Assembly (NCBI GenBank): GCA_964407035.1
Contig: CAYOTZ010000001.1
Location: 12,482 to 44,481, forward strand
Reading direction: 5' to 3'
DNA length: 32,000 nucleotides
Source of the DNA: an uncultured Methanosarcinales archaeon
GTDB taxonomy: Archaea > Nanobdellota > Nanobdellia > Woesearchaeales > B29-G15
Part shown: one piece after another, positions 1-26,861 of the stretch
How positions within the stretch are numbered: the first letter of the stretch is position 1
Layout: the number at the start of each line of letters is the position of its first letter
The notes under the pieces: model-generated
What the model was told of the DNA's origin: nothing
Seen by the model: the letters and a program-made list of their open reading frames with translations, nothing else
Database searches by the model: none
Translations under genes and position numbers: made by a program

Positions 1-573
1 CTCAGCGCCAGTTACTTTTGTTTCCAAACTAGTCAGCTCATCACCCATTAACAACTCAAATTTTCCATCTGCATCCTGCTTGATCAGTGCGTATTTCTGA
101 ATTACAGGAGGGTACAAAGTAAGGGTTTTTCCATCAACTTTAATCCTCTGTTGTCTCCCAAGCTGAACACCGTAGTTTATAGATTCCAAAGTGAATTTGC
201 GTATTATCTCTTCATCTTCGCTATTAAAGTTTATTATATCATAATCAGGAGGCAATAAATAGAAATTTGTTGAGTGCTTTTCTTTTGTTAGGAGTATCCT
301 AAAATGGTTCAATCTTGTTGGTTTCAACACAAGGCACGGGCAGGGGATATTGAAAGGATATGAATTGTCATTACAGTTCCTTATGTTGTTAATGAAATCT
401 TGAAAGAAAGAGATAGCAGATGTCTTATCAAGTTCTGTTATGTCAGAGGTTTCATTAGGTGTCATGTTCAGTATCGGCTTTCCCGCATCTCTTATCATGG
501 GCCCAAAAATTGATATTGCAAATATTAATAACAATAATGCAAGCGCCCATTTCAGCAGCTCTTCAAAGGTCAT
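1..573 (-). CDS. Membrane-anchored hypothetical protein (C-terminal end runs off the window); paralog of the 763..2100 product
   Basis: Hand translation of the minus strand from the ATG at 571-573 gives MTFEELLKWALALLLLIFAISIFGPMIRD... and stays open to position 1. It is absent from the ORF track because no stop lies in the window. ELLKW plus a hydrophobic helix, FFQDFINNIRNC, PCPC and FYLLPP align with ELLKW, FFENYLEALEKC, ACKC and IYLLPK of the 445-aa neighbour. Confidence 0.6.
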   Translation of the reverse strand, partial: MTFEELLKWALALLLLIFAISIFGPMIRDAGKPILNMTPNETSDITELDKTSAISFFQDFINNIRNCNDNSYPFNIPCPCLVLKPTRLNHFRILLTKEKHSTNFYLLPPDYDIINFNSEDEEIIRKFTLESINYGVQLGRQQRIKVDGKTLTLYPPVIQKYALIKQDADGKFELLMGDELTSLETKVTGAE

Positions 574-710
574 AGTATCCTCTTGAGAAAATCTATTATT
601 CCAAGCGACTTATTTGTGAATAAGTGGAATATGAAGAGCAGCAAAAGGGCAGCGAACACAGCTAATACGAGAAGCACTAACCAGTGGGGTAGGTCGCCTC
701 TTTTGTTCAT
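570..710 (-). CDS. Micro-protein (46 aa) with a single TM helix
   Basis: Hand translation gives MNKRGDLPHWLVLLVLAVFAALLLLFIFHLFTNKSLGIIDFLKRIL*. Its TGA overlaps the ATG of the downstream gene (ATGA at 570-573). It is below the ORF-track length cutoff. A TATA-like aaatttaaat lies upstream. Confidence 0.45.
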   Translation of the reverse strand: MNKRGDLPHWLVLLVLAVFAALLLLFIFHLFTNKSLGIIDFLKRIL

Positions 711-762
711 ACCTCTTCATTAATTAATGTTCTATTTAAATTTATTGCTGTTAGCTACTCAG

Positions 763-2100
763 TTATTTAACAATATCGAGAATAACATACCTACTGTCGG
801 TATCCCAATCAGAATCATCCAATGCTACTATTTTATTGCCTGAGTATTCATCTAGCTGATAAAGGGCTGTAAGTGAAATATCATCAGCGCGATTAAAAAA
901 GATACTGGAATCTGCGATTTCAAGGTCAAAATATTTATAAGGGGATTCAGCATTCGGACAATATCCTCCAGAAAAAACATAATAATTGGTAAATACACAC
1001 ACTTTGCAATTTTCCTCGTTTGGCAAGCATTCCACTGGAAATTTATCACATTTTTCATTGTCTCTCAAATAATTGATGAACCCTAAACACCCATAATCTT
1101 TGACACCTGGTGTGGAGGATTTAACCAAGAATCTAACATTAACGCCAGTTATAGTAGCATTATAGAAATCTTTCTCTGGCCAAATGTAATTTGAAGCAAG
1201 CTGCTCAGGATATTGGTAGCCAAGCACCTGAGTGTTCTGTGAGCTGTTTTTTATTACTACATAGCTGTGCTCAGGGAAGTCTTCTGTAAACACATGTCTG
1301 GAATTGTCACTTGCTGCCTGCCTGATAAACTCAACAAAGTTGTTGAACTGCTCTTTACCTTCCTGCATTTTAGAGCAAGAGGGCATCTTATTTAAGGAAA
1401 GCCTGTTATCATTGGGAGTTGAGTGGACTATAACTCTGTCCAGGTTCTCTTCAAAGACCTGCACGAGACGCACACCCCAGATGTTTTTACTGTCTGTGGA
1501 ACTCAAAGGGAGAGAATCTCCATATTTTATATTAAGTGTACCATCGTTATTCCCGTCAAACAAGATATATTTCCACCACATTGGTAACCAAAACAAGTAA
1601 TTCAAATCTTTTTTGGGTATATTATATGTAGAGTCCTTACTATTCACAGGAGCTATAACAAAAGATTGAATATTATAATGCAGCTCTTTGCTTATTAATG
1701 CTTGCTCTTCAAGCTCCTCCTCGCTACTAAGATTAGCATTCTTGGGCAGAAGATAAATCTTAGATATCTTATCTTGTTCAGATGGGTTAGGCATAATAAT
1801 TATCATTTTCATATCCAATAAGGGTGTAGCATCCACTACATCGCACTTACATGCAAGAGGTGGTAAAAAATCATATTCTTCATGCAGGAAATCGTAGCTA
1901 AAACACTTCTCCAATGCTTCGAGATAATTCTCAAAGAAGAGGATGCTGAATCTGTGCCTGGTTATATCTATAGTATCATTAACCTTTGGAGGGTTATAAT
2001 CTGGCGCTTTATAATTTCTGTACATAAGGAATACACCACCGCTCACAATAGCAAGGAATAGCACAGCAATAATCCACTTCAACAGCTCATTCCATTCCAT
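763..2100 (-). CDS. Membrane-anchored, Cys-rich hypothetical protein (445 aa)
   Basis: Long ORF with an N-terminal MEWNELLKW followed by a hydrophobic helix. The C-terminal part is Cys-rich (CDKFPVECLPNEENCKVCV...GGYCP), which fits an extracytoplasmic location. Starts 4 nt after the upstream stop. I recognise no family. Confidence 0.75.
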   Translation of the reverse strand: MEWNELLKWIIAVLFLAIVSGGVFLMYRNYKAPDYNPPKVNDTIDITRHRFSILFFENYLEALEKCFSYDFLHEEYDFLPPLACKCDVVDATPLLDMKMIIIMPNPSEQDKISKIYLLPKNANLSSEEELEEQALISKELHYNIQSFVIAPVNSKDSTYNIPKKDLNYLFWLPMWWKYILFDGNNDGTLNIKYGDSLPLSSTDSKNIWGVRLVQVFEENLDRVIVHSTPNDNRLSLNKMPSCSKMQEGKEQFNNFVEFIRQAASDNSRHVFTEDFPEHSYVVIKNSSQNTQVLGYQYPEQLASNYIWPEKDFYNATITGVNVRFLVKSSTPGVKDYGCLGFINYLRDNEKCDKFPVECLPNEENCKVCVFTNYYVFSGGYCPNAESPYKYFDLEIADSSIFFNRADDISLTALYQLDEYSGNKIVALDDSDWDTDSRYVILDIVK

Positions 2101-2104
2101 TTTT

Positions 2105-3043
2105 TTAGCCCAGTTTAGTGCATTGCTGTTCCAGTATATCCTCTTCAGAAAAGGGGCTTACGACTATTCCGTAGCTCCAGTTTATATCAGCAGACGGCCC
2201 ACCAATAAAGCCAGCACCAGCGCCAATAGCAGCTCTGAAGGGTGCTTTCAATGCTATGGAAGCTAATTTCGAAAGTATTGTAGTTGAGCCACCAGTGAGG
2301 AATGTTGTTGCTGCTGTGAAAACAAAACCGCCAATTGCTGAAAGACCTGAAACAAGCCATTTGTCCCAGAAGCCGCGCTCCTTGCCATAAACCAGCAGAA
2401 CAGTATACGGCAGAGATGTGTTAATAAAAGGAAAAGGAAGCTCTTCTTCTAGGAAATCTTCAACTGGCATCCTTGCAAGCTTATTCAAATCTTCATAATC
2501 CTCAATAGTTGGTGAAACACCATAAATAAACTCGTAGTAACTGCGCTTGTCTCTAAACCGTGGGATGCGATGCGCCATCATGTATGCAGTTAAATTCTTC
2601 AGTAACTTATCTCTAGCTTCACCCTCAAAATCAATATAAGCGCAGATAATGCAGAAGCGCTCTCTATGACCACGAGCGACATTAAAGATGTTGTAGCGAC
2701 CCTCTCCGAACCTGTCCCAGCAATCGTAAGTGGCATTTGCTATCACCTTGTAAATCTCCTCTTCGTCGCCAGTATTTATTATAAACTTCTTGGGCGGGCA
2801 TTTAATATCAGAAACTACAAATGAATCAAATTCCTTAAAGTTCCTTATAGCATTAGCACGCACAGAGGCCTTGCATATAGCATCCTGGCTAGTTGCTTCT
2901 GTTTGCTTCCTTATAAGCCACACAATATACATACAGATTACTAACACAACAACAAGCAGAATAACCTTTACGATAAAACTGTGGCTGCCTTCTTCTCCTC
3001 TCTTATCCCCAAACAAAGTCGCACTTTGCATTTTTAAAATCAT
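2105..3043 (-). CDS. Membrane-anchored hypothetical protein (312 aa) with a Gly-rich hydrophobic insertion near the C-terminus; paralog of 3003..3773
   Basis: ORF with a TM helix (FIVKVILLVVVLVICMYIVWLI). Shares CWxxxGEG, CIxCAxIxF(D/E), YM/YL..R(I/M)P and YY(E/D)(F/Y) motifs with the upstream gene. The true start may be the Met at 3031. Confidence 0.75.
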   Translation of the reverse strand: MILKMQSATLFGDKRGEEGSHSFIVKVILLVVVLVICMYIVWLIRKQTEATSQDAICKASVRANAIRNFKEFDSFVVSDIKCPPKKFIINTGDEEEIYKVIANATYDCWDRFGEGRYNIFNVARGHRERFCIICAYIDFEGEARDKLLKNLTAYMMAHRIPRFRDKRSYYEFIYGVSPTIEDYEDLNKLARMPVEDFLEEELPFPFINTSLPYTVLLVYGKERGFWDKWLVSGLSAIGGFVFTAATTFLTGGSTTILSKLASIALKAPFRAAIGAGAGFIGGPSADINWSYGIVVSPFSEEDILEQQCTKLG

Positions 3044-3773
3044 CTACAGGCCAAAGCACCATCTGCAGATTGTCTCTGCTGTACTTGAGAAAGCTCAAAT
3101 CAAAAGGACCAATTTTAAGCCCGATAGCTCCACCTTTTCTGAAGTAATATATTAAATAATAGGTCTTTGACGTGTCTAATTCGTCTAATTGCTCTGGATT
3201 GGGTGGGTAAACTAAAAGCTTTGTGTTCTGAGGAGAGAAATAATCGTAGTACAGCATGTTCCTGCCAGGCATTCTCTTTAGCTTGAGATACTCAACAAGC
3301 TCTGTTATCTTGTTATATTCAGATTGAACACTCTCATCAAAGCTTATCTTGGCGCAGAGTATGCAGTAAACAGCTGTTGGTCTAAAAAAAGGCACCACAT
3401 GCCACTCACTACCGCCAAAAGGGTCTATCATTCCCTCGCCTGTTTTGAACCAGCATCTCCGCATAACATCAGCCAGCTCAAGCTTTATATCAGCCAGCGG
3501 GTTTTTGGAACTTGACTTCTTTATTACAACCTGCTCCATTTTGCATTTTGGTTCTGAAATAGGTTTTGCATGACCTGACTGTCCTGGTAACTTGTCCCAG
3601 ATAGAAAGCTTTTTAGAAGCTTCCATCAGCATTAAAGAGTTCCTGCAAACATCAGCATCTGTTTTGCTTTCAAACAAAGGTAGAAACTTCACGGCAAGAT
3701 AAATAATCGCTATACCCACAAGAATACCAAGTGTTAATAAGATTACACTGCTGATTGCTAATCCCTTTTTCAT
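3003..3773 (-). CDS. Membrane-anchored hypothetical protein (256 aa); paralog of 2105..3043
   Basis: ORF with N-terminus MKKGLAISSVILLTLGILVGIAIIYL (KG followed by a hydrophobic helix). Carries the CWFKTGEG and CILCAKISFDE motifs shared with the downstream paralog. Confidence 0.75.
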   Translation of the reverse strand: MKKGLAISSVILLTLGILVGIAIIYLAVKFLPLFESKTDADVCRNSLMLMEASKKLSIWDKLPGQSGHAKPISEPKCKMEQVVIKKSSSKNPLADIKLELADVMRRCWFKTGEGMIDPFGGSEWHVVPFFRPTAVYCILCAKISFDESVQSEYNKITELVEYLKLKRMPGRNMLYYDYFSPQNTKLLVYPPNPEQLDELDTSKTYYLIYYFRKGGAIGLKIGPFDLSFLKYSRDNLQMVLWPVDDFKNAKCDFVWG

Positions 3774-3883
3774 TCTCTCAAAGCTCGCAGTATTTTGAAC
3801 AAGATGAATATAGCAGAAACAAAGAAAGCACTCATAACAATTAGGGTGAGCAGGCTTTTGTGTATCAATGACCCCTTTTTCAT
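3770..3883 (-). CDS. Micro-protein (37 aa) with a single TM helix
   Basis: Hand translation gives MKKGSLIHKSLLTLIVMSAFFVSAIFILFKILRALRE*. Its TGA overlaps the ATG of 3003..3773 (ATGA at 3770-3773). A TATA-like ctttttatac lies about 30 nt upstream. Below the ORF-track cutoff. Confidence 0.45.
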   Translation of the reverse strand: MKKGSLIHKSLLTLIVMSAFFVSAIFILFKILRALRE

Positions 3884-3922: not shown

Positions 3923-4387
3923 TCAGCTACTCAGCTCGTAAAGCTCCAAGTCGCACAGGAAACTCTCTCTCTTCAGCTCCCTAACAATATAGAACACTCG
4001 CCTCTGCCTTATCCTAAATCTCTGCTCAAGCTGTTCCAAGAAAAGGTCTGCATCCTTTATATGCCTAAAAATTGCTTCTGCCATAAACTGGTACTCGTCA
4101 TCAAGCTTAAACACAGAGTTCACACAAGCTGACTTCACCAAGCTATTCTTCAGCTTATCTACATCTTCTGGCTCGCAGCTTACGAAGAGTATGGCAATTG
4201 TGTGGTAACCAAGCTCCTCGTAATTGAGTAGGGCAGTATGCTTCTTTATTAGCGAGTCACGATAAGCCATAAGCTTTGTGTATATTGTGCTGACTGGAAT
4301 GCTTGTTTTCTTGCTCATCTCTGTAAGAGGCTCACGGGCATTCTTGCGCAACTCGGATAGTATCTTGAGGTCCTTTTTCTTGAGCAT
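3923..4387 (-). CDS. Lrp/AsnC-family transcriptional regulator
   Basis: 154 aa. N-terminal HTH pattern LKILSELRKNAREPLTEMSKKTSIPVSTIYTKL followed by an AsnC-type ligand-binding-like C-terminal half. Confidence 0.8.
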   Translation of the reverse strand: MLKKKDLKILSELRKNAREPLTEMSKKTSIPVSTIYTKLMAYRDSLIKKHTALLNYEELGYHTIAILFVSCEPEDVDKLKNSLVKSACVNSVFKLDDEYQFMAEAIFRHIKDADLFLEQLEQRFRIRQRRVFYIVRELKRESFLCDLELYELSS

Positions 4388-4512: not shown

Positions 4513-5442
4513 ATGAAACGAAGCGTTATCCAACAGGGTGGTAAGACACTAATGGTATCTTTGCCAATAAAATGGGCAAAGAATTACAACATAAACAAAG
4601 GGGATGAGTTAGAGCTAAAAATAGACGGCAACAGGATTTGCTTTTCTGCAAGCGGAGAGTCAAAACCAGAAGGTATTACAGTTAGCTTTGAGGGGCTATC
4701 AGAGAGAAGCATAAGATATGTGCTATCAGGTCTGCACAAGAGCGGTTATGACGAGTTAAACATATTTTATGACAAGCAGGAGAACCTTGAGGTGATTGAG
4801 GATGTTCTGAAAAATTTATATGTTGGTTTCGCAATAGTTGACCAGAGTGACAAGAGCTGCAAGCTAAAATCTCTTTCAAAAGAGCTGCCAGATCAGTTTG
4901 ATACAGCTCTGAGGCGCGCCTTTCTTGTGACCTTGAGCATGGGTGACAGCATAATTGAGGCAATTGAAAAAGGCAAATTCAAGGCACTAAACGCTATAAT
5001 AAATCTTGAGAAAACAAACAACCAGCTAACCAACTTTTGTGAGCGCCTGCTGAACAAATATCCTTTTCTCTTTCCAAAAAAGCAGAATTTTATGTATGTA
5101 GTGCTATGGAACCTTGAAAAAATCTGCGATGACTACAAGTATATATGCAAGAACCTTGCAGATTACAATGGAAAAATCAGCAGAGAGCTCGTTGAGTTCT
5201 TCAAAGCTACCCAGAACCTACTAAGGGGATTTTATGAGTTGTTCTACAAGTTTTCGCTGGAGAAGCTTTCCCAGCTCAACGAAGAGAAGAAGAGAATAGA
5301 GCAGCATCATTTTAAACTCGGTGAAACACTGAAAGGAGAAGAGCTAAAGCTGTGGTTCTATTTAATGAGTGCAATCTACAAGATAGTGGAGTTCTCAGCT
5401 TCTACCTGCGCATTGAGATACACTACCGAGACACAGCAATAA
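4513..5442 (+). CDS. AbrB/SpoVT-domain plus PhoU-like phosphate uptake regulator homolog
   Basis: The N-terminus MKRSVIQQGGKTLMVSLPIKWAKNYNINKGDELELKIDGNRICF is SpoVT/AbrB-like. The remainder is helical and PhoU-like. The track start at 4489 adds MNCCLILA; I prefer 4513 because of TATA spacing. Confidence 0.8.
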   Translation: MKRSVIQQGGKTLMVSLPIKWAKNYNINKGDELELKIDGNRICFSASGESKPEGITVSFEGLSERSIRYVLSGLHKSGYDELNIFYDKQENLEVIEDVLKNLYVGFAIVDQSDKSCKLKSLSKELPDQFDTALRRAFLVTLSMGDSIIEAIEKGKFKALNAIINLEKTNNQLTNFCERLLNKYPFLFPKKQNFMYVVLWNLEKICDDYKYICKNLADYNGKISRELVEFFKATQNLLRGFYELFYKFSLEKLSQLNEEKKRIEQHHFKLGETLKGEELKLWFYLMSAIYKIVEFSASTCALRYTTETQQ

Positions 5443-7516
5443 GCTCAGATATTTTTTGCAGGGAAGCTTCAAGGTTTTGATAGCTTTCATTGTGCTGCTC
5501 ATAGAAGTCACTGTGGTATTTCCTTATATCTCTTACAGCCCGTAGGGCTGCCTTTAACATCCCTTTTCTGTGCCTCTTCATGCTATGCCTTGTTGTCGAT
5601 GACCAGGCACCGCAGAGTGATATGGCACGCTGAATTACTGCATTGTGATATGCAAGCATAAACGCTTCTTTATTTTTTATCTTGGCAAGACCTGTCTCGT
5701 GTGCTAAAGAGTTGAAACTTGCTATATAAGCTGATATTATCTGCTGCTTGTCCTCGTAACTCAACTTTGGGTTGTACTCAATTAGGTTGACAAGATCAAA
5801 CTGTTGAGGCACTATGCTCTTGTCTTCTGTGTCCACTCTAGTAATCACACCATCTTTGCTTATGATGTACTGCTCAGGATGGCTGTCCAGATTAAAACAC
5901 CACTGGGCTTGCTTCAGTGTTTCATAAACAGGCCTGTAATTCTGGATTACAACACGAACCAAGTTCCTGTATTTTACATATGGTGCCTTTGCCTGTATTT
6001 CTTCTACAAGCTCTCTATACAACAATCTTGATTTAACTTTTAATGCAAGGTGCAGCTTGCCACGTTGAGATACGGTTTTCGGGATAGATGCATGTAGCCT
6101 GCCAAGGAAACTGGCTACTTCATAGAGAAAAGGCATAACATCTCTTACATGAGCTGTTTCAATCAACTCCATAAGGGTAATGCCAGGAGCACGCTTCATA
6201 ACATAAACATTCCTCTGCTCATTGTTTATAGTGAAGCTCCTTGGTGCTACAACAACCTCAGGCAATCTAAACTGTTTGAGCCCCTTAATTAATGATTCAA
6301 GAGTGTTTCGCAACTCATACTCCTTCTGAAGCACTTCCAGCTCTGGATTCTCCTTGAATACAAAAGTCGTCTGTAGATATCTGTGAGGTCCAAAGGTGTA
6401 AACAAGGTTGGCTGTTTCGCCTATGCTTTCCTGTTTGAATTTAGGGTTGCCGAGAATCAAGGCAATTACCTTCCCCCATTGCCTCTGCCTAACAGATTCT
6501 TCAGCATCAATTGTTTCAAGAAACAACGAATGGGCAAGATTAAATGCAAGGTCGCGCCTTCCAAACAAACCAATTGCCTTCCAGAAGAATTGCTGAACCT
6601 TTGGCTTGAAGCCATAATGAGCCATATAGAGGTCAGAAAGGAGCCAGGCTGTGCTTACCTTTGACTCGCTAAACAAAAGTCCAATATGTGCAAAAATATA
6701 GGTCATAGGCCCCAAGAAAGGGTAATCTCTAAATGAAGCAGGGAAATTATATGTATACTCCAGCAACTCTCCAGCTTTGAATTGCTTGAGATGCTTATTA
6801 AGGTATTCCATTGCCTTATCAAAGTTGTCTATTTGGAGATAAGAAACAGCAAGCTGACGATAATAGACATTTACATCCTTTGAACTCTCCAGCTCTTTAA
6901 TAAAGCTCTTTATCTTAACTTTGTCCTTTTTAAAGCGATTCTTGATTGATTCTGTAAATTCCCAAAAGCTTTTTTCAGGCAGTTTGGTGAGTGCTAATCT
7001 GTGAGTAATATCTTTTATTAACCATACAAGGTTTGAATATGTCAACAAACCATAACTGAGTATAGGTAATGAAGCTGCTAATATAGAGTAATTCCCTCGT
7101 GCAATAGATGACAGAATATAAGGAAGGTTTAATGCTATAGGCGGTACAAATAATAATGCAACAAATAATGGTTGGTATTTATCCAAAGCTTTATATGCCT
7201 TGTACAGCCCCTGGTGATGCACAGGTAGATTAAGTGGTTTTATACGCTGCCTGATTCTCGCATAGAGGAGAGCACTGTTTAATATGGGACCTGCTAAGTC
7301 CATGATTGAAGCTGGAGCTGCAGGATGATAAACAGCCCAAGGGTTATAATAATTGTTCACCAAAAACCAAGCCCAGTCACCAAAGAAATAAAGTCCAGCG
7401 GAAACAGCGGCACCAGTGATATTCGGATAATCCAATACAAGTCGTTCCAATTTGCTCTTTAAAGCCCTAAGCTTAGAGTCAGAAACCCTATCTTCAAGCT
7501 CCTTCATTGTAATCAT
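5423..7516 (-). CDS. Polytopic membrane protein with a TPR-like linker and a C-terminal APH/choline-kinase-like phosphotransferase domain
   Basis: 697 aa. Several hydrophobic helices lie in the first ~170 aa. The C-terminal half has kinase-like-fold signatures: VYVMKRAPGITLMELIE, LGRLHA, FNLDSHPEQYIISKDGVITRVDTED (compare HGDLHPGN...IDWE). The catalytic-loop motif is divergent. Confidence 0.55.
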   Translation of the reverse strand: MITMKELEDRVSDSKLRALKSKLERLVLDYPNITGAAVSAGLYFFGDWAWFLVNNYYNPWAVYHPAAPASIMDLAGPILNSALLYARIRQRIKPLNLPVHHQGLYKAYKALDKYQPLFVALLFVPPIALNLPYILSSIARGNYSILAASLPILSYGLLTYSNLVWLIKDITHRLALTKLPEKSFWEFTESIKNRFKKDKVKIKSFIKELESSKDVNVYYRQLAVSYLQIDNFDKAMEYLNKHLKQFKAGELLEYTYNFPASFRDYPFLGPMTYIFAHIGLLFSESKVSTAWLLSDLYMAHYGFKPKVQQFFWKAIGLFGRRDLAFNLAHSLFLETIDAEESVRQRQWGKVIALILGNPKFKQESIGETANLVYTFGPHRYLQTTFVFKENPELEVLQKEYELRNTLESLIKGLKQFRLPEVVVAPRSFTINNEQRNVYVMKRAPGITLMELIETAHVRDVMPFLYEVASFLGRLHASIPKTVSQRGKLHLALKVKSRLLYRELVEEIQAKAPYVKYRNLVRVVIQNYRPVYETLKQAQWCFNLDSHPEQYIISKDGVITRVDTEDKSIVPQQFDLVNLIEYNPKLSYEDKQQIISAYIASFNSLAHETGLAKIKNKEAFMLAYHNAVIQRAISLCGAWSSTTRHSMKRHRKGMLKAALRAVRDIRKYHSDFYEQHNESYQNLEASLQKISELIAVSR

Positions 7517-9359: not shown

Positions 9360-9465
9360 CCAGTTACAGTGTTGCTTTATTAGTATTTAAGCATTGCTGT
9401 ATGCCAGACAGAAATTTTTATAAATGGATACATAAGACAGGCCCATAATTCAGGTGAGTGAAGAT

Positions 9466-9760
9466 ATGAGAAAGGAGTTTGAGGCGTTTGCTTCAAAGAG
9501 GGATTGCCCCTACCAGGAGCTAATCAAGAATATGTCGAGCGTGTTCAAAGAGTTAGAGCCAAGCAGCACTATCATTTCTATACCAAAAAATAGCCAAGAA
9601 AATTGAAGACAAGCTCCCAAGTAGTGATTTTAACAGCATCTCTGAATTTATAAGCTTTGTATTGAGGTTGCTAATCTACGAGGAAGCGATTTCTGAAACA
9701 AAAGGAGTAAAGCCAACAGGGTAAAAGATAAGCTTAGGAAGCTTGGTTATATTGATTAAA
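9466..9760 (+). pseudogene. Frameshifted ribbon-helix-helix (CopG-like) small regulator
   Basis: It reads in three frames: MRKEF...STIISIPKNSQEN*, then (I)AKKIEDKLPSSDFNSISEFISFVLRLLIYEE...PTG*, then RVKDKLRKLGYID*. The first break is at the A6 run at 9585-9590. A TATA-like tttttataaa and an aggtga RBS are intact upstream. Confidence 0.55.
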
Positions 9761-9796
9761 ATGGGAAAAATATCTCCATATAGTTGTTATAGGTTA

Positions 9797-10102
9797 TAGA
9801 AACACGCACAAAAAATTAATCACAGAGAAAAGCTCTATAACATTGCAGATACGCCTGGGCACAAGGACTTTATAAAGAACATAGTCACAGAAGTGAGCCA
9901 ATGTATGATTGAGCTGCTTCACGAGAAGATAGGCATAACAAATGGTGAAGTGATAGAGATAAAACGAGAGGAGTTGGATGATAAGGAAGCTGGTTTGGTT
10001 ACTATAACAATGAGCAAATCCGTTTACCACAGACTATTTCACATACTGCACAAAACTCAAGACAGAGAAGCTGGCAATTGCAATAAGAAAGTAGAAGTTT
10101 GA
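9797..10102 (+). pseudogene. Gene remnant: translational-GTPase (EF-1alpha/EF-Tu-type) G3-region fragment fused to unrelated sequence
   Basis: The frame reads ...EKLYNIADTPGHKDFIKNIVTEVSQ..., which matches the EF-1alpha pattern [20 protein letters not shown]. There are no G1/G4 motifs, no plausible start, and a stop immediately upstream. Confidence 0.35.
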
Positions 10103-10284
10103 TGCAGTCATAGTTGGCATAAGGTGGGAGGACACAGTATTAGAGGAAAGGAAAGCTTTTTTTCAAAGTGTTATGGCCCTGACCACTGGCATGTGCATCC
10201 TATGTTGAACTGGAACTTGACTGAGATTTGGGATAGCAGAACGCTGGACAAGGAGCAGCTAATGGAGGAGTTGAGAGCTCTCGG

Positions 10285-11475: not shown

Positions 11476-11683
11476 TAATTAACTATTGATTAGTGATTCT
11501 TTAAAAATTTTCTTCTTTTTAAACTTTTGACAAATTGTAATAATAAAGAATGGCAATGACAAAAGTAAAAAGAACTTAGGAATACAGATAGATTTATATT
11601 TAAAGTATGTTTAACTAAAATGCAGCTTAAAGTAATTCCTAAGTGGATTTCTTTAAGTTTGTTATGTTTGGAGGTGTTAATAA

Positions 11684-12115
11684 ATGCCAAAGAAGGCAAA
11701 AGAGGGCTCCACTGTTAGTGTGGAATTTGAAGGAAAATTAGAAGACGGAACAGTGTTTGACAAAAGCAAGCCAGACCAGCCGCTTGTGTTCACTATAGGA
11801 GAGCACAGAATTATTCCTGCTTTTGAAAAGGCGGTTGAGGGTATGTCTGTGGGCGAGAAGAAGGAGATAAATCTCAACCCAAAGGATGCTTTCGGTGAGC
11901 GCAAAGAAGAGCTTGTAATTGGCGTCCCAAAGAGTAACTTCCCGCATGACCTTGAGCTTAAAGAAGGTGCATTGATAAGGGTCGGGCTGCCGAACGGTAT
12001 GCAGGCACCAGCAAAGATTGTCAAAATAGCAGAGGACGTTGTTGTGCTTGATATGAACCACCCCTTAGCTGGTAAGAAAGTGAGTTTCAAAATTAAGCTT
12101 ATAGACACCAATTAA
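11684..12115 (+). CDS. FKBP-type peptidyl-prolyl cis-trans isomerase (SlyD-like, with insert-in-flap)
   Basis: 143 aa. GSTVSVEFEGKLEDGTVFDKS...PLVFTIGEHRIIPAFEKAVEGMSVGEKK...MNHPLAGKKVSFKIKLI. A GGAGGTG RBS lies 7 nt upstream. Confidence 0.9.
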   Translation: MPKKAKEGSTVSVEFEGKLEDGTVFDKSKPDQPLVFTIGEHRIIPAFEKAVEGMSVGEKKEINLNPKDAFGERKEELVIGVPKSNFPHDLELKEGALIRVGLPNGMQAPAKIVKIAEDVVVLDMNHPLAGKKVSFKIKLIDTN

Positions 12116-13478: not shown

Positions 13479-14462
13479 CTATTTGATATTCACTTCAGAG
13501 GAATCTCCAACATTCAGCACCTTGAACTGCCCGCTCACCTTTGCATAATCGCCTACCAAAGAGTCAGTTAACATCTCGTTCCTTATGTCTGCATAAGAAT
13601 TGATTATGGAGTTCTTGATTATTGAGTTGGCAACAATTGCACCTTTGTCTATCGTCACATAAGGCCCTATTATGCTGTGCGATACCTTTGCAGTATCATG
13701 TATAAATACCGGCGGAATAATGGAAACGCCTTCCCGTTTCCTGTAATAGCCACTTGATTTCGTCAGAAGATACTTGTTTGTCGCCAGTAGGGTTTCTGGT
13801 TTGCCACAATCATACCATCCTTCTATCGGGAATACAGTGAGCTTGGCTCCCTTTTCTACCATCAACTGAAATGCGTCTGTTAGCTGGTATTCGCCTTTTG
13901 TCTTTATGTTTTTTGCTATTATCTCGCGGAGGCACTCGAACATGAGTTTTGAGTTTTTTATCACATTCACACCTACAATAGCAGGCATTGGCTTTACAAA
14001 GTCGGGTTTCTCTATAAGATTGGCAACAAAAGAGCCATTGAGTTCAATAACCCCCCAGCGTCTTGGGTCGTCTACCATTTTCACACCTATCGTGCCGTCA
14101 TGCTCTGTTTTCAACGCCTCACTAAAGTCACCTATGAATATAGTATCTCCATATATTATCAGGCAGGGCTGATCTTTTACAAACGGCTCTGCTAATAGTA
14201 TAGCATGTCCAAGCCCCTTTCTCTCTGGCTGCTCGGCGAACCAGAATCTCATATTGGGATAAGCGCGATGAACATATTCCTTTATCTGCTCGCCCTTGTA
14301 TCCAATTATCAGCACTGCTTCTGTTATGCCTAGGTCAAGAATGCTGTCAAGTATGTGGGCAAGTATTGGCTTGCCAGCAACATTCAATAGTGCCTTTGCA
14401 ACTGTGTGAGTGTGCGGCTTCAACCTTGAGCCGACACCAGCTACAGGAAGTATTGCCTTCAT
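13479..14462 (-). CDS. Sugar-1-phosphate nucleotidyltransferase with a C-terminal left-handed beta-helix
   Basis: 327 aa. MKAILPVAGVGSRLKPHTHTVAKALLNVAGKPIL (GxGxRL signature). The C-terminus has hexapeptide-like repeats (SIIGPYVTIDKGAIVANSIIKNSIINSYADI). Confidence 0.85.
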   Translation of the reverse strand: MKAILPVAGVGSRLKPHTHTVAKALLNVAGKPILAHILDSILDLGITEAVLIIGYKGEQIKEYVHRAYPNMRFWFAEQPERKGLGHAILLAEPFVKDQPCLIIYGDTIFIGDFSEALKTEHDGTIGVKMVDDPRRWGVIELNGSFVANLIEKPDFVKPMPAIVGVNVIKNSKLMFECLREIIAKNIKTKGEYQLTDAFQLMVEKGAKLTVFPIEGWYDCGKPETLLATNKYLLTKSSGYYRKREGVSIIPPVFIHDTAKVSHSIIGPYVTIDKGAIVANSIIKNSIINSYADIRNEMLTDSLVGDYAKVSGQFKVLNVGDSSEVNIK

Positions 14463-14476
14463 AATTCACCACCCTA

Positions 14477-15945
14477 TTACCAGCAAATACCTTCGTAATT
14501 CTTGCCGGTTCTTTTGTTAAGGAACTTCATACCATCAATAAATATTTTGCCCTTGAAAAGCTGCTCGTTACGCAGCTCCGGCCATTCTGTTACTCCAATA
14601 ACAACATCTGCGTTTGAAATGGCATCATCAAAGTTTGGACTGTAAGCTAAGTTCGGGAATAACTTCGCCATGTTGCGCTCTGCAGCAGGGTCATAAGCAA
14701 TAACCTCAGCGCCCTCTTTCAACAGCTCTTTTATTACTGTTATGGCAGGGCTTTCTCTTATATCATCTGTGCCAGGTTTGAAAGCCAAGCCAAGCACAGC
14801 AACACGCTTGCCCTTTAAAACGCCAACGCGTTTCTTGGCAAGCTCCACAAGCTTCTTTGGCTGCTCCTCGTTAACTCTCCAGACTGCCTCAAGCAACAAG
14901 GGTCTTACTCGAAGCTTTTTCCCAAGCTGTATAAGAGCTTTCACATCTTTCGGAAAACAGCTACCACCAAAACCTCTGCCAGCATTGAGAAAGCTCCTGT
15001 TTATCCTTTTGTCCAAACCAACTCCGTCCATTACCTCATATACATCTATACCGAGCTTCTTGCACATGTTGCCAATCTCATTTGCAAATGATATCTTTGT
15101 GGCTAACAGGCAGTTTGAAGCGTATTTTATCATTTCGGCTGTTTTTATGTTGGTCTTATAGAAAACTGTGTCGAATTCCTTGTAAATGAACCTTATCGCC
15201 TCGTAATCTTCGTCATTTCCCACGCCGATAACAATCCTGAAAGGGTAGAGGAAATCCTTTAGTGCTAAACCCTCCCTGAGAAACTCAGGCACCATCGCTA
15301 TTCTGAAATCTGAGTGTCCGGCATTCTCTGATATCAAGCGCTTAACAAGACCCTCTGTGGTGCCAGGCAGCACAGTGCTCTTAACAACGACAATATGCCC
15401 TTTCTTGTGTTTTAAAATAGCTCCCAGCTGGCAGCAACCTGCTCTAAATAACCGAGATATTGATTGCCTGTTTCTGTTGAAGGAGTGCCGACAGCTATAA
15501 AGGTAGCATCTGAATTCATCACAGCATCCTTTAAACTTGTCATGCAGTTGAACATCTCATCTGGTAGCTTCTCAAGCAAATCCTGCAAGCCCTCCTCATA
15601 TATGGGTGCTCTTCTGTTCGCTATCTTTCTTATTTTATTTTCGTCAATATCAACACAGATAACACGCCTGCCACGATGGCACAAGCCAACAGCAGTCACC
15701 AAGCCAACATAGCCAACACCAACTATAGATAAATTTACTGGGGCGTTAACAAATCTTGGGCTTAGTTTATAGAGAAGCTTAGCATTTGAGTGAACAAACA
15801 AGCTGTTGTAACCCTGCAGCTCTTTATGTTTTCTTATTAAATCATTTATTAGCACGAGCCTGTGCCTGCTCAAGTGTTCTGGAACCTCTATTGTTAATTT
15901 CTTTTTTCTATCGCCAAACCTAAAGATTAAATCCAGTTTTTCCAT
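14477..15945 (-). pseudogene. UDP-glucose/GDP-mannose 6-dehydrogenase-family gene split by a single-nucleotide frameshift
   Basis: The N-terminal ORF (track 15412..16008) has IVGVGYVGLVTAVGL...FIAVGTPS...LGYLEQVAA and then hits a stop. In the other frame the sequence continues QLGAILKHKKGHIVVVKSTVLPGTTE into the 14477..15373 ORF. The frame change maps to about 15430-15431 (a CC that would be CCC). The likely start is MEKLD at 15945. Confidence 0.8.
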
Positions 15946-16038
15946 TTTTTTATTTCTTATATTTTGTTTTTTATTTTTGTAAAAATGTTCATTTAAATAT
16001 CTTACCATTATCTTACCATATCCTACTTTTTAGAAAGA

Positions 16039-23382: not shown

Positions 23383-24216
23383 ATGGATATTGCTGTAATT
23401 GTTGTATTTATTGCTAACCTTATTGCCTATCTTCTTTTTGCAAGAAAGGGGCTTGCGAATAAAGCACTAAGAGGGTTATGGCTTGTCTTTATGTTGGCGC
23501 TTCTGTTGAGATTATGGTTGCCTATCCATGCGCATATTGTCTACACAGACGAAATAGAGCACATGAGTTATGCTAAACAATTGTTAACTGAACACAGTGC
23601 GAATGGCTATTCGAGACAATCTGCTTGGCCCATAATACTCGCTCTTGCCTTCGCTTTAACACTCTTTTTTATGCTGCACCTGCTCACTGCCTATTTTCAG
23701 GACAGACTGTTCTTAAAGATATACGCAATACTGATACTTCTGGCAGCAATAGGAAGCTTAGAGATACCAAAAATGTTCAGGCATTCCAGTTATCTTAATA
23801 CTCTACCATTTGTTTTAGTGCTTGTGTTTGCTATTACCACCCCTACTGCCAGAGCAATGTTCAGCTCTAGGGAGTTGATTTTGGAGACAGAGCTGGTCAA
23901 CCGCCTTAGTAACTATATACCAGAGAGATGTAGCTTGATAATGAACCAGCCAGTTATAGCACACTTTGCTGGCTTGGAAGCGTTCGATACAGAAGGGCTG
24001 CTGAAAGACAGGAAATTCAGAGAGTGGCTGTTCAACCACAGGGCTTGTGTTTTGTTCTTAGAGGATTACACCTGCACAGTTCGCTGGCCATTCAAAGAAC
24101 GAGATTTCTGTGGGCTTGTAAAAAAGAATTTCGGTCCGAGCAGATTCGCAGATATATGCACTAAAGGCTTTTGCTACAGTATTTACAAACTCAGAGGATT
24201 TCAACAGCAAAATTAA
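23383..24216 (+). CDS. Integral membrane protein (about 5 TM helices) with a Cys-containing C-terminal domain
   Basis: Multiple hydrophobic helices. The first-loop motif HIVYTDEIEHMSYAKQLL is faintly reminiscent of GT-C glycosyltransferases, but the protein is much shorter than those. Confidence 0.55.
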   Translation: MDIAVIVVFIANLIAYLLFARKGLANKALRGLWLVFMLALLLRLWLPIHAHIVYTDEIEHMSYAKQLLTEHSANGYSRQSAWPIILALAFALTLFFMLHLLTAYFQDRLFLKIYAILILLAAIGSLEIPKMFRHSSYLNTLPFVLVLVFAITTPTARAMFSSRELILETELVNRLSNYIPERCSLIMNQPVIAHFAGLEAFDTEGLLKDRKFREWLFNHRACVLFLEDYTCTVRWPFKERDFCGLVKKNFGPSRFADICTKGFCYSIYKLRGFQQQN

Positions 24217-24655
24217 AGTGAACACTAACCAAATCGCCCGGCTTGGCGTTTGGTGTCATAACACCAACCACTTTGACTGCTCTGCCATTTATCTCAACTT
24301 CCAGATAGCTGCCCCTGTTTGCTATTACCTTTGCCTTGTACACCCTGCATAACTTTTTGAAGCTCGCTGTAGCTCTGCTGTAGCTACCGTCGCCGCTGTC
24401 AATGAATGTGTTATGGTGCACTATGAAGTATTCACGCACCCTATCCTCACTCCAGAAGTTATCACCGTAAATCTGCTTCATTCGCCTAAACGCCTCTTTG
24501 AATATCCCTTCAAGTTGCTCTCTGGTAAACTCTTTGTTATTGCTCACTGCCTGCTTTATCATATCAAGCTGCTGCTTTGTTATGCTGCCCTTTTCAAACA
24601 GCGCACTGGCACAGGGGTAGGCGTATTTCAAGAATAAAAGCTCGGCGTTACCCAT
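24191..24655 (-). CDS. Two-domain protein: uncharacterised helical N-domain plus a HypC/HupF-like OB-fold C-domain with an internal Cys
   Basis: Residues ~102-154, LCRVYKAKVIANRGSYLEVEINGRAVKVVGVMTPNAKPGDLVSVHFNFAVEIL, align without gaps to the adjacent HypC sequence MCFAIPGKVVKVEKDKATVDYFGEERIADVSIINCKPGDYVIVSGGFVVEQV. There is an 8-nt overlap with the hypC stop. Confidence 0.7.
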   Translation of the reverse strand: MGNAELLFLKYAYPCASALFEKGSITKQQLDMIKQAVSNNKEFTREQLEGIFKEAFRRMKQIYGDNFWSEDRVREYFIVHHNTFIDSGDGSYSRATASFKKLCRVYKAKVIANRGSYLEVEINGRAVKVVGVMTPNAKPGDLVSVHFNFAVEIL

Positions 24656-24851
24656 TTTTCAAACTGTTAAGCATAGCCTCTGCTTCCTGCTTTGGCACCT
24701 GCTCAACAACAAACCCGCCACTAACAATTACATAATCCCCTGGCTTGCAATTAATTATAGAAACATCTGCTATCCTCTCTTCGCCAAAGTAATCCACAGT
24801 GGCTTTATCCTTCTCTACCTTGACAACTTTGCCAGGGATAGCAAAGCACAC
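24648..24851 (-). CDS. hypC: [NiFe]-hydrogenase maturation chaperone HypC
   Basis: 67 aa. N-terminal MC(F/L)AIPGKV, then PGDYVIVSGGF. Confidence 0.9.
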   Translation of the reverse strand: MCFAIPGKVVKVEKDKATVDYFGEERIADVSIINCKPGDYVIVSGGFVVEQVPKQEAEAMLNSLKNG

Positions 24852-25172
24852 TCATTCCACCTCTACTTTGAGTAGTTTGATATGCTGACCTTCTATCACC
24901 CTGGGCACAGCACTGCATTTCGGGCATTCAAAATATGTGTGCTCGTGAGTTCTCAGCAGCACTTTTGGCGGACCTCTGTAACCGCACTGGCACTGCACAA
25001 CAGCTGGCTTGCGTCTATACTCTATTTGCCAATCCACCATCTCGTTCAAGGTTGGCTTTAGATCCTCTAAGGGTAGATGCGCCAGATCGCCTACCTCCAC
25101 AACTATACTGCGGACCTTGCCATGCTTCTTTGCTTCGTCTATTATCTGTTTGGCTATTATTGTTTCGTGCAT
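24852..25172 (-). CDS. hypA: [NiFe]-hydrogenase nickel-insertion protein HypA
   Basis: 106 aa. MHE N-terminus and a CxCG...CPKC zinc motif. Confidence 0.9.
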   Translation of the reverse strand: MHETIIAKQIIDEAKKHGKVRSIVVEVGDLAHLPLEDLKPTLNEMVDWQIEYRRKPAVVQCQCGYRGPPKVLLRTHEHTYFECPKCSAVPRVIEGQHIKLLKVEVE

Positions 25173-25191
25173 GTGTCAGTGTAGCGAAAAC

Positions 25192-25578
25192 TCATTTAAT
25201 AGCTTTGCGCTGAGCTGTAATTCGGGATAAGAGCTTGACAAGCTTCTCTTTTGCTTCTTTAAGCTCTCCAGCTTTTGGTATTCCAATAATAATTAGCTCG
25301 TCGAGCATATTGAGCTTCTTCATAAGGGTTAGCCACTGGAATAAATCAAAGTCGTGTGCAGTCACTGTGTTTGTTTGCTGTAACTCTGATAAGTCCACCA
25401 AGCGAACATCTTCCAATCCTTCAACCACATCCACAACAATCAATGGTATGGTTATCTCTATGTGCTCCCATTTATAGCATTGCACAAACTCGAAGCCAGG
25501 GATGGTGAGCTGCTTACACAGCTCTAATGCCCTAGAATCGTCTTTTAAGTATGGATTACCCAAGCAGTAAACTCTCAT
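25192..25578 (-). CDS. Hydrogenase maturation endopeptidase (HycI/HoxW-like)
   Basis: 128 aa. VYCLGNPYLKDDSRALELCKQL (GN..(x)DD motif) and TAHDFDL. ATGA overlap with the large-subunit stop. Confidence 0.85.
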   Translation of the reverse strand: MRVYCLGNPYLKDDSRALELCKQLTIPGFEFVQCYKWEHIEITIPLIVVDVVEGLEDVRLVDLSELQQTNTVTAHDFDLFQWLTLMKKLNMLDELIIIGIPKAGELKEAKEKLVKLLSRITAQRKAIK

Positions 25579-26861
25579 TGTCGCTCAAGTTTAAGCTTAA
25601 GGAAGTGAGTGCTGCAGGATATGCAAGGGTCATATGCCCTAATCAGCTTCTCCAACTCAAGCTTTATCTGCCTCTCATTCATATTAAGTATTCCCGGCAG
25701 GAAGAGTTTAACATCCTCTTCTATATTGTGCAGGTTCTGTGAAGTTGGCGTAATAATGTTGCAAGCTTTAATCTTGCCAGTTGCACTAAGGGTATAATCA
25801 TGTATTAAAACGCCACGCGGCACCTCTGTTGCAGAAACCCCTCTGCCTGCTTTGAGTTTTATCTGCTTCGGTTTCTCGTTCTTTATCTTGAGATTGAGTA
25901 GTATCTTAAGCGCTCTGTTGTAAAACTCAAAAATCTCTATCGCCTGAGCAAAGTTGTTGGCAAAGGGGCTGAAGCTTGGAAAGCTATACCTAGAAGCTTT
26001 GACAAACTGCTTTGCCTCGCTGCTAAGCTTGTCGTAGTGTAAGTTGAGTCGCGAGAGGGCAGATGTCATATAACTCTGGCCAAGAAATAGGGCTTCTTTA
26101 GCTGTAGTCCCCTTTTCAACATATTCGTTAATTTTTCTGTGATAGTCCTTGATATTGAATTCCTTGTTGTTCAGCATCGCTGTAAGTTTGTCGTCAAAGA
26201 AAATTGAATTTGAACTCCTTGATAAGGCAAGGTGCTCGCATTTTCTTTCAAACTCGGGTGCTTTCAAGCTCCCGAACAGTTTGACAGTGCTAACTACCAA
26301 TGGCTTTAGTTTTTTTAGCTCAGCTACGAGCTGGTCAAGCTCTGACTGCGAGGGTAACTTAGTAAAGCCGCCGACTATTGCTTTGACAGCATGAATCTCC
26401 CTACCGCCTATCACTCGCTCTATACGGTTAAAGCCCATCTTAAGTTTCAATGCTGTTCTCAGCAAATCCTTGTCGTGCTCTGTAAATTCAAGTGCAGAGC
26501 TAACCCCGTAATAGTCAGGCAGTGCTAAGAAGTAAAGATGCAGCAAGTGGCTCTCTATAATATTGCCTATCAGCAGCAGCTCGCGCAGGGCTTCTGTTTG
26601 CTTTGACACCTTTATGCCCAGTGCTTTCTCTATAGCCCTAAGTGCACCGATTATATGCGACTGCGAGCAGACGCCACAGATTCTCGAAGATATGTAATGA
26701 GCTTCTTCTGCCTTTCTGCCGATAAGTATGCCCTCAAAGTACCTTGCGCCTTCAACCACCCGAAGCTCCACTACTTCAACCCTCTTGCCCTTTACTTTTA
26801 CATACAGGTTGGCATGGCCCTCTATCTTTGCTATATGTTCCAGCTCTATCTCCTTGCTCAT
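25575..26861 (-). CDS. hydA: [NiFe]-hydrogenase large (alpha) subunit, group 3b-type
   Basis: 428 aa. N-terminal RICGVCSQSH (RxCGxCxxxH). C-terminal DPCISCSTH (DPCxxCxxH), followed by the 9-aa tail FLKLKLERQ, which is expected to be removed by the protease. Confidence 0.93.
   Translation of the reverse strand: MSKEIELEHIAKIEGHANLYVKVKGKRVEVVELRVVEGARYFEGILIGRKAEEAHYISSRICGVCSQSHIIGALRAIEKALGIKVSKQTEALRELLLIGNIIESHLLHLYFLALPDYYGVSSALEFTEHDKDLLRTALKLKMGFNRIERVIGGREIHAVKAIVGGFTKLPSQSELDQLVAELKKLKPLVVSTVKLFGSLKAPEFERKCEHLALSRSSNSIFFDDKLTAMLNNKEFNIKDYHRKINEYVEKGTTAKEALFLGQSYMTSALSRLNLHYDKLSSEAKQFVKASRYSFPSFSPFANNFAQAIEIFEFYNRALKILLNLKIKNEKPKQIKLKAGRGVSATEVPRGVLIHDYTLSATGKIKACNIITPTSQNLHNIEEDVKLFLPGILNMNERQIKLELEKLIRAYDPCISCSTHFLKLKLERQ

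Follow-up and report, generated by a model that had tools for sequence, protein, structure and literature searches.

A conserved gene cluster of DPANN archaea that probably encodes the prepilin-like subunits of a type IV filament system with a murein hydrolase

Background

What kind of structure is encoded by a run of tightly packed genes whose products all begin with one hydrophobic helix and match no named protein family? This question is raised by six minus-strand genes at the start of a 32-kb stretch of DNA, referred to here as the window, from an uncultured Methanosarcinales archaeon (placed by GTDB in Nanobdellota, Woesearchaeales, B29-G15; assembly GCA_964407035.1, contig CAYOTZ010000001.1, positions 12,482-44,481). 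An earlier interpretation made without database searches, called here the sequence-only reading, had proposed that the six genes encode a dedicated cell-surface assembly that is possibly pilus-like. This proposal is supported by conserved gene order, by a family-wide [KR][GA] leader motif, by an ATPase and an A24 prepilin peptidase that neighbour the cluster in relatives, and by AlphaFold2 (AF2) models. We consider it rather probable that the six genes open a 13-gene operon for the subunit set of a type IV filament (TFF) system that is specific to DPANN archaea and includes a murein hydrolase, the target of which may well be the wall of bacterial hosts. Operon extent, family sizes, gene order, motif statistics, domain identities and predicted folds were computed directly. 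Pacearchaeota and Woesearchaeota are among the most widespread uncultured archaea, and to our knowledge neither their hosts nor their means of contact are known.

Results and discussion

The six genes open a 13-gene operon

All six open reading frames (ORFs) are present where they had been placed on the minus strand, and a single N-terminal hydrophobic helix was confirmed in each of their products. In the direction of transcription, the ORF list gives a 37-amino-acid (aa) mini prepilin-like protein in which MKKG is followed by one hydrophobic helix (3770-3883). Next are the two members of what we call family F: a 256-aa protein (3003-3773; profile search and AF2 model) with MKKG, a helix and a disulfide-rich head and without a Gly-rich insertion, and a 312-aa protein (2105-3043) in which a sequence ending in GDKRG precedes the helix, with the same head and a Gly-rich hydrophobic insertion at about residues 230-283. 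They are followed by the two members of family N, namely, a 445-aa protein (763-2100) with an N-terminal signal-anchor helix, no [KR][GA] motif and 10 cysteines, and the first 191 codons of a 431-aa protein that is cut at the window edge (1-573). Between these two, the ORF list has a second mini-gene (570-710), which codes for 46 aa that begin with MNKRG and continue as one hydrophobic helix.

The junctions are those described before. Two of them (3770-3773 and 570-573) are ATGA overlaps of 4 nucleotides (nt), and two are gaps, of 4 nt (2101-2104) and 52 nt (711-762). For the remaining overlap, at 3003-3043, the length of 41 nt stands only if the 312-aa gene starts at the ATG at 3043, and it would be less with either of two alternative in-frame starts, the ATG at 3031 or the TTG at 3019; no candidate start has a clear ribosome-binding site. 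The two paralogous pairs are genuine but distant, with pairwise E-values from 7e-8 to 2e-15. The full-length 431-aa and 445-aa proteins are 22% identical (E=2e-15), the 191-aa fragment in the window matches the 445-aa protein at E=1e-8, and the 312-aa and 256-aa proteins are 23% identical (E=7e-8). None of the six window proteins had a significant match in Pfam or NCBIfam, and none of the four large ones had a significant match in PHROGs.

The sequence-only reading spoke of a six-gene cluster, which has to be revised because the actual operon has 13 genes and the window holds only its front part. An exact look-up of the 445-aa protein retrieved a 31-kb ENA contig, L001, that is identical to the window over the 4.5 kb compared. 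Extending the DNA leftward by means of L001 revealed the remainder of the operon, which consists of seven further genes downstream of the 431-aa gene that overlap or lie a few bases apart. In L001 the genes are ordered, by product length in aa, as 37, 256 (F), 312 (F), 445 (N), 46, 431 (N), 131, 106, 243, 346 (Amidase_3), 177, 165 and 522, and the 3' neighbours of the operon are RPA, YdjM, RadA and RFC. All 13 products have one N-terminal helix each.

The product of the 37-aa ORF is absent from the public protein collection. Its counterpart, an ORF of 35-53 aa with K[KR][GA] and a helix, lies directly upstream of the family F gene in at least 13 other loci. The 46-aa ORF is called as a gene on six public contigs, and in related loci a small protein of about 50 aa with K[KR][GA] precedes the family N gene.

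The gene order is conserved in DPANN archaea

Conservation was examined by scanning one genome per GTDB species with a pattern from a 4-sequence sub-alignment, broader alignments being too divergent. The scan yielded 38 loci, nearly all of them labelled Pacearchaeota, Woesearchaeota, Nanoarchaeota or "archaeon" and including the complete genome CP061211.1. Three loci are on contigs labelled bacterial; two of these carry archaeal RPA and one of the two also RadA. The two are L031 (labelled Dojkabacteria, with RPA and RadA) and L037 (labelled 'bacterium', with RPA), in both of which these genes accompany the archaeal pilin-like cluster, and they are probably mis-binned DPANN contigs in GTDB genomes.

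A gene map was made from iterative searches seeded with the 13 operon proteins. In what follows, the numbers 7-13 stand for orthologs of operon genes 7-13, K for a small protein with a K[KR][GA] leader, and mini-K for the one directly before F. The order in relatives is an ATPase in some loci, a polytopic membrane protein of about 720 aa, small K, N (about 200 aa), 7 (about 120), 7 (about 60), 9 (150-370), mini-K (35-47), F (about 300), 10 (about 115), 11 (about 155), 12 (about 165), 13 (about 265), RPA, in some cases YdjM, and RadA. The order in the window organism is the gene of an Lrp/AsnC-type regulator, mini-K (37), F (256), F (312), N (445), K (46), N (431), 7-9, 10 (Amidase_3), 11-13, RPA and RadA. 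F, 10 and 11 are adjacent in 30 of the 38 loci and gene 9 is directly before F in 29; RPA is present in 27, the ~720-aa protein in 26 and RadA in 22. The alignments on which orthology is based reach residues 95-225 for N, 9, 10, 11 and 13, well beyond the helix, and those for 8 and 12 cover only the N-terminal helix and are unreliable.

The arrangement of the window, including the Lrp-type gene and the Amidase_3 gene, is kept in locus L003, whose RadA is 88% identical. The RadA proteins of the other genomes are only 55-59% identical, and therefore the cluster is old and chromosomal. The layout was reproduced by independent gene calls on a Logan contig. Conserved gene order in related genomes, which the sequence-only reading had expected, was thus found in about 30 DPANN genomes. 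That reading had also named the findings that would speak against it, namely, confident matches to well-characterised families, N-termini that are ordinary Sec signals or not in the membrane, and a lack of synteny, and we found none of them.

Most cluster proteins carry a prepilin-like leader

It had been claimed that a [KR]G precedes the helix in four of the six window proteins. This is so for MKKG (twice), GDKRG and MNKRG, and the 445/431-aa pair is without a prepilin-type motif. When the cluster proteins of all loci were taken together, 249 of 293 (85%) were found to have [KR][GA] before the helix, compared with 44 of 122 other N-terminally anchored proteins from the same loci (odds ratio 10, p=3e-22). 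The motif is present in 117 of 147 family F representatives, and the leader in 35 of 36 family 9 and 33 of 35 family 10 proteins. Among the 249 motif-bearing proteins, N occupies position -3 in 145 and K occupies position -2 in 233, position -1 is K or R in all, position 0 is G in 152 and A in 97, and the most frequent residue at position +1 is Q (54 proteins). Such a register goes beyond what the positive-inside rule alone would give, and it fits a putative recognition site for a peptidase.

Motor genes lie beside the cluster in relatives

If the cluster proteins are prepilin-like, a prepilin peptidase and a PilB/FlaI-type ATPase should occur with them. In relatives they do. A protein of about 765 aa encoded close by belongs to the T2SSE family of ATPases (40.4 bits, cutoff 24.9), and PF00437 was confirmed in L048 by precomputed Pfam annotation on an independent gene call. 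The prepilin peptidase, of the Peptidase_A24 family, is a membrane protein of about 290 aa (45.1 and 35.7 bits, cutoff 26.5). The ATPase is at most 10 kb from F in 22 of the 38 loci and the peptidase in 12, and in nine loci the ATPase, the ~720-aa protein and the cluster are directly consecutive. The co-occurrence does not extend to the window, L001 and L003, and the motor genes of the window organism are assumed to be elsewhere in its genome.

Archaeal type IV filament loci usually have an ATPase beside the platform protein (PMC4858521). In the present loci the protein at this place is the ~720-aa polytopic protein, which is conserved at 55-75% identity (for example L016 4268-6442, L019 4211-6340 and L038 6491-8644). 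A resemblance to PilC/FlaJ was considered and gained no support, as there was no match in Pfam or NCBIfam, no PDB sequence match and no internal repeat detectable by BLAST. Its position alone makes it a candidate for a non-canonical platform protein. Two further sets of genes are found here. In 14 loci three paralogous small polytopic proteins (about 160-177 aa, no Pfam match) neighbour the ~720-aa protein or the ATPase (L016 2216-3813, three genes; L038 19028-20521; L040 3-1415), and two coiled-coil-like proteins (about 130 and 294 aa; L016 15956-17254) adjoin the ATPase in 15-18 loci, with divergent orientation in L016. Both sets may be accessory components.

Family F is large and family N is of a different kind

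The sequence-only reading called the proteins orphans. This does not hold for the 256/312-aa pair, which belongs to a family that comprises more than 2000 sequence clusters (50% identity), nearly all of them from Pacearchaeota, Woesearchaeota or Nanoarchaeota. A HMMER search of 1.84 billion representatives with the 256/312 profile gave 2316 relatives at E<=1e-3 and 601 at E<=1e-10. A word-indexed search with a 60-sequence family F profile had retrieved only two proteins, probably because Gly-rich and hydrophobic words swamped the candidate list, and it was the full HMMER search that exposed the family. No Pfam family was matched consistently by the 60 members.

The claim of conserved cysteines was borne out in the alignment of these 60 members, which has four invariant ones, C43, C77, C137 and C251. 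Two more, C107 (within C-W-x3-G-E-G) and C140 (within C-x-x-C), are kept in at least 90% of the members. The consensus N-terminus is x-K-K-G followed by the hydrophobic helix. Most members have the Gly-rich hydrophobic insertion, as does the 312-aa paralog and unlike the 256-aa one. The AF2 model of the 256-aa protein (predicted local distance difference test, pLDDT, 88.5; predicted template modelling score, pTM, 0.82) has a helix at residues 5-56 and an α/β head on a β-sheet. That of the 312-aa protein (pLDDT 78.9, pTM 0.74) has a helix at 20-69 and the same head, and its segment 230-283 has a pLDDT below 50. Considered as type IV pilins, the models have a predicted N-terminal helix of 50-52 residues and a β-sheet head but no PDB fold match; the 256-aa model had no fold match in BFVD either. 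With PDB sequence profiles, family F and its N-terminal 34 residues gave non-significant hits to an archaellin N-terminus (E=1.7) and geopilin (E=1.4) amid generic membrane helices.

Family N behaved differently. The 445-aa protein found only itself in a word-indexed search of 5.8 billion sequences and had no match in the genome scan, and an iterative search seeded with it reached only L001-L003. The iterative search from its 431-aa paralog linked the family to proteins of about 200 aa that occupy the corresponding place in 24 loci, with alignments that reach to about residue 110. The [KR][GA] motif is present in one of 20 family N members. Since it is missing in all the others, including the 445/431-aa pair, family N is more likely to be an uncleaved bitopic component.

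Peptidoglycan hydrolase domains are attached to two of the subunits

The product of operon gene 10 (346 aa; L001 14272-15312, outside the window) has an Amidase_3 domain (PF01520, 53.2 bits, cutoff 27). H164, E179 and H241, which correspond to the Zn ligands of the family, align with solved amidases and are conserved in L001 and L003 (L003 gene at 13650-14669). E316 of L001 ('FVLELGN'), presumably the catalytic Glu, aligns with the Glu of PDB amidases and is replaced by Val in L003 ('ALVLGN'). In the window lineage subunit 9 is short, and it is subunit 10 to which the hydrolase is fused.

In relatives it is subunit 9 that carries such a domain. Its orthologs share an N-terminal module, and in about half of the loci a C-terminal catalytic domain is added, the type of which varies by lineage. 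It is an SLT lytic transglycosylase (68-79 bits) in L016, L009, L012, L013 and L021 by Pfam and in L017 and L011 by NCBIfam, a GH73-type glucosaminidase (51-79 bits) in L004, L010, L018 and L022, and an M15 D-Ala-D-Ala peptidase (38 bits) in L006. A further 16 versions of 147-184 aa have no recognised catalytic domain and are too short for one, and the long forms of L025 (344 aa) and L028 (396 aa) had no match in Pfam or NCBIfam. The best NCBIfam matches of the SLT and GH73 domains are the BB0259-type and FlgJ models, with scores far below the cutoffs of those models.

The recruitment of four unrelated murein-cleaving domains to the same machine argues that murein is its real substrate. Since the archaea that produce it are not known to have murein, a bacterial wall is the most likely target, and we put forward the wall of a bacterial host or prey tentatively, as a distinctly possible one.

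A proposed mechanism

From these data we infer the following course of events. Most newly made subunits would begin with a short x-N-K-[KR]-[GA] leader ahead of about 20 hydrophobic residues, and the leader would be cut off by the A24 prepilin peptidase. Together, the T2SSE ATPase and the ~720-aa protein would then lift the subunits from the membrane by their N-terminal helices, and the subunits would assemble into a fibre or a short pseudopilus. Family F would be the conserved core subunit, with a head presumably stabilised by disulfides and usually with the Gly-rich hydrophobic insertion, and the 445/431-aa family N proteins would more likely be uncleaved bitopic components that serve in assembly or as an anchor. 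The subunit with the hydrolase (Amidase_3 on subunit 10 here; SLT, GH73 or M15 on subunit 9 in relatives) would enable the structure to act on a bacterial wall in attachment, penetration or feeding. Expression would probably be controlled by the upstream Lrp-type regulator.

Alternative explanations

A number of results do not sit easily with such a filament. Pilin and class III signal models of Pfam and NCBIfam matched neither the window and L001 proteins nor the 60 family F members, and Foldseek found no PDB match, pilin or other, for the 256-aa or the 312-aa model. A profile of the N-terminal 34 residues retrieved generic membrane helices and not pilins, a test that was uninformative. Polar residues stand straight after the Gly in three of the four motif-bearing window N-termini (KG-SLIH, RG-EEGS and RG-DLPH), which is atypical of archaeal pilins. 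The ~720-aa protein had no T2SSF signal even at E=10 among 14 members and no PDB sequence match, and neither it nor the ATPase or the A24 peptidase has a homolog in the 32-kb window, L001 or L003. The Gly-rich insertion could hold family F in the membrane instead of in a fibre. As for the hydrolase, subunit 9 is without one in 16 of about 30 loci, and the L003 amidase has lost the catalytic Glu. Hydrolysis is thus not universally required; the L003 subunit may bind murein without cutting it. Several of these points would be explained if the cluster encoded an uncleaved, membrane-anchored envelope complex with ordinary signal anchors and no fibre, such as a scaffold for a wall or S-layer, a complex that acts in division or in envelope remodelling, or a bindosome-like array. 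The missing pilin model and fold matches, the family N proteins without the motif, the extra Gly-rich hydrophobic segment that is usual in F, and the lack of the ATPase and the peptidase in the window, L001 and L003 are all in keeping with this, and a fixed order of at least 10 different subunits, each in single copy, suggests a complex more than a homopolymer. However, ordinary signal anchors would not account for the conserved register of N, K, [KR] and [GA] at positions -3 to 0, which goes well past the positive-inside rule, nor for the T2SSE ATPase and the A24 peptidase near the cluster in 22 and 12 of the 38 loci, with ATPase, ~720-aa protein and cluster in a row in nine. Moreover, proteins of 35-60 aa that consist of a leader and a helix fit pilin-like subunits and not enzymes or scaffolds. 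We therefore think that such an envelope complex is unlikely, and quite likely that the cluster is the prepilin-like subunit module of a TFF-type system.

Even if it is, the hydrolase might open a murein-like layer of the cell itself to let the machine be assembled, as FlgJ and VirB1 do in bacteria, or release muropeptides that are scavenged from dead cells, so that no living host would be attacked. This would be consistent with the best NCBIfam matches being to flagellar-assembly hydrolases (BB0259-type and FlgJ), with the ROK sugar kinase and the SIS-domain isomerase that flank the cluster in the window and L003, and with the polysaccharide deacetylase beside RPA in L003. But the similarity to flagellar hydrolases is far below the model cutoffs, and no murein synthesis genes were found in the window or in the loci examined. 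In addition, these lineages have been published as being without a murein wall and their SLT proteins have been read as directed at bacteria (PMC8204110, PMC9723730). Use of the enzyme on its own envelope or for feeding on dead cells is in our view quite improbable. The chance that the cluster belongs to an integrated virus or mobile element, with the small membrane proteins and the endolysin-like amidase forming a lysis or entry module, is very slight. The amidase does weakly match the phage endolysin family phrog_435 (E=2.7e-6) and many of the small membrane proteins are unannotated, but nine other cluster proteins that were scanned had no significant PHROGs match, no locus has an integrase, capsid or terminase gene, GC (guanine plus cytosine) content is uniform, and in about 27 genomes, with RadA identities of only 55-59%, the cluster is at the same chromosomal position by RPA/RadA.

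The TFF reading can also be taken further. The cluster could encode a host-piercing organelle of Pacearchaeota, Woesearchaeota and Nanoarchaeota, that is, a TFF-derived needle or tip complex with swappable murein hydrolases, in which the glycine-zipper-like insertion of F enters the host membrane and the ~720-aa protein replaces PilC/FlaJ. We regard this as speculative and doubtful. If this is true, genomes would give direct evidence of a life on bacteria for these very abundant uncultured archaea, and the genes of the contact apparatus would be named.

The regulator and other genes around the cluster

The Lrp/AsnC-type regulator that had been noted upstream of the cluster is indeed there, on the minus strand at 3923-4387, 39 nt upstream of the 37-aa ORF. 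Its product matches HTH_24 (25 bits, cutoff 21.9), and an HTH_AsnC-type match of 24.4 bits is just below the cutoff of 27. The NCBIfam Lrp, LrpA and LysM models align over residues 2-130 at E=1e-9 to 1e-11 (Lrp, E=9e-11), with scores far below their cutoffs. There is no Pfam match to the C-terminal RAM/AsnC_trans_reg domain in the window protein and a weak one in the L003 ortholog. In L003 the Lrp gene overlaps the following gene by 4 nt. The Lrp-type gene is probably the first gene of the operon or its regulator.

The flanking genes are archaeal (RadA, RFC, RPA, a group 3b [NiFe]-hydrogenase and sugar-nucleotide enzymes), and the GC content is uniform at about 0.40. Upstream of the regulator, a minus-strand gene at 5423-7516 codes for a 697-aa protein with N-terminal membrane segments, a weak TPR match and no family. 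Its position is kept in L001 and L003, where the order is PGI, ROK, the 697-aa gene, PhoU/AbrB, Lrp and the cluster. It was considered as a substitute platform and rejected, as it has no similarity to the ~720-aa protein of the other genomes.

Further along the window, 925 nt at 9360-10284 hold no ORF of 100 aa or more but an EF-1α-like fragment, 'TPGHKDFIKN'; since L003 has intact EF-1α and PAPS-reductase genes nearby, this looks like the remnant of a pseudogene. At 11677-12115 an ORF on each strand (143 and 144 aa) covers nearly the same stretch; the plus-strand ORF is the real gene (FKBP_C in the L001 annotation) and the other is its shadow. A UDP-glucose/GDP-mannose dehydrogenase is split into two minus-strand ORFs (14477-15373 and 15412-16008), one with the first part of the NAD-binding domain and the other with its end and the central and C-terminal domains, which could be due to a frameshift, a pseudogene or an assembly error. 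The minus-strand operon at 24191-29351 resembles a group 3b (sulfhydrogenase-type) [NiFe]-hydrogenase, with genes for the large and small subunits, an FAD/NAD subunit, a 4Fe-4S subunit and a protein with a HypC-like C-terminus. A thrombospondin type 3 (TSP3, calcium-binding) repeat protein (142 bits) is encoded on the minus strand at 30561-31943 and has no visible signal sequence at the listed start. In L033 a 1136-aa bacterial TSP3-repeat/Big_13 protein adjoins the pilin-like cluster.

Significance and comparison with known systems

With these results, genes that were "hypothetical" become a defined conserved locus of about 15 genes with motor parts, a leader motif and an enzyme for bacterial walls. 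Several large unnamed protein families, among them family F with its more than 2000 clusters at 50% identity, gain a handle for annotation, and a very abundant uncultured archaeal group gains a concrete candidate for its host-contact apparatus. It can now be tested whether bacteria, as opposed to other archaea, are the cells to which these archaea attach, which proteins make up the contact structure, and whether a type IV filament machine works with a platform unrelated in sequence to PilC/FlaJ. A search of the literature that combined DPANN, pilin, class III signal and hydrolase found no description of the cluster, which is not proof that the cluster is undescribed.

The archaeal TFF systems, such as the adhesive pili Aap, Ups and Epd (Makarova et al. 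2016, PMC4858521; bioRxiv 10.64898/2026.04.22.720090), have these features in common with the present loci of relatives: a T2SSE ATPase, a class III signal peptidase of the A24 type, a set of several proteins in which a short basic leader ends in G or A ahead of about 20 hydrophobic residues, and an ATPase gene that adjoins that of a polytopic membrane protein. The 2016 census of archaeal type IV pili (PMC4858521) and the 2026 preprint (10.64898/2026.04.22.720090) have no mention of peptidoglycan hydrolases, transglycosylases or the loci of these lineages. The cluster differs from those systems in that its ~720-aa polytopic protein has no T2SSF, TadC or FlaJ signal, in that none of its at least 10 subunit families matches a known pilin model or fold, in its own leader consensus, N-K-[KR]-[GA], and in that one subunit carries a peptidoglycan hydrolase; moreover, the subunit operon of the window organism is apart from the motor genes and behind an Lrp regulator. 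Bacterial pseudopilin and minor-pilin operons, namely, GspG-K of the type II secretion system, ComGC-GG of competence and FimU-PilVWXE of type IV pili, likewise have a fixed-order set of single-copy prepilin-like proteins, and the likeness suggests a short heteromeric fibre or tip complex and not one major pilin. However, no sequence or fold similarity to them was detected, and the present cluster is archaeal, with Cys-rich heads and mini-subunits of 35-60 aa.

Hydrolases dedicated to a machine (FlgJ, Borrelia BB0259 and the VirB1/EtgA type) resemble the present ones in that an SLT or GH73 domain is encoded within the locus of an envelope-spanning machine. Here the scores are far below the cutoffs of those models, a prepilin-like helix serves as the tether of the hydrolase, the type of catalytic domain is swapped among lineages (SLT, GH73, M15, Amidase_3), and the producer is not known to have murein. 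SLT-domain proteins of small-genome Pacearchaeota and Woesearchaeota have been read as signs of bacterial hosts or of predation (PMC8204110, PMC9723730). The large SLT proteins described there (fam00969, Castelle et al. 2021, PMC8204110; GH23, Vigneron et al. 2022, PMC9723730) share with the present hydrolases the lineages, the enzyme class and the proposed target, bacterial walls, but are up to 3000 aa long and are discussed alone, whereas those found here are of 300-400 aa and are in a pilin-like cluster beside motor genes; a link between hydrolases and a pilin-like cluster or motor genes is not reported in the passages of PMC8204110 and PMC9723730 on peptidoglycan, transglycosylases, pili and murein. 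The closest functional analogy is with the type IV pili that drive episymbiosis in Saccharibacteria, which belong to the CPR (candidate phyla radiation) (PMC9894109, PMC11623550). By lifestyle, these too are ultra-small, host-dependent cells in which a filament mediates attachment to a bacterial host, but they belong to a different domain of life, no homology has been shown, and the archaeal system is known from its genes alone. What sets the cluster apart from all of these systems is the combination of unmatched subunit families, a non-canonical candidate platform, a leader consensus of its own and interchangeable murein hydrolases on its subunits.

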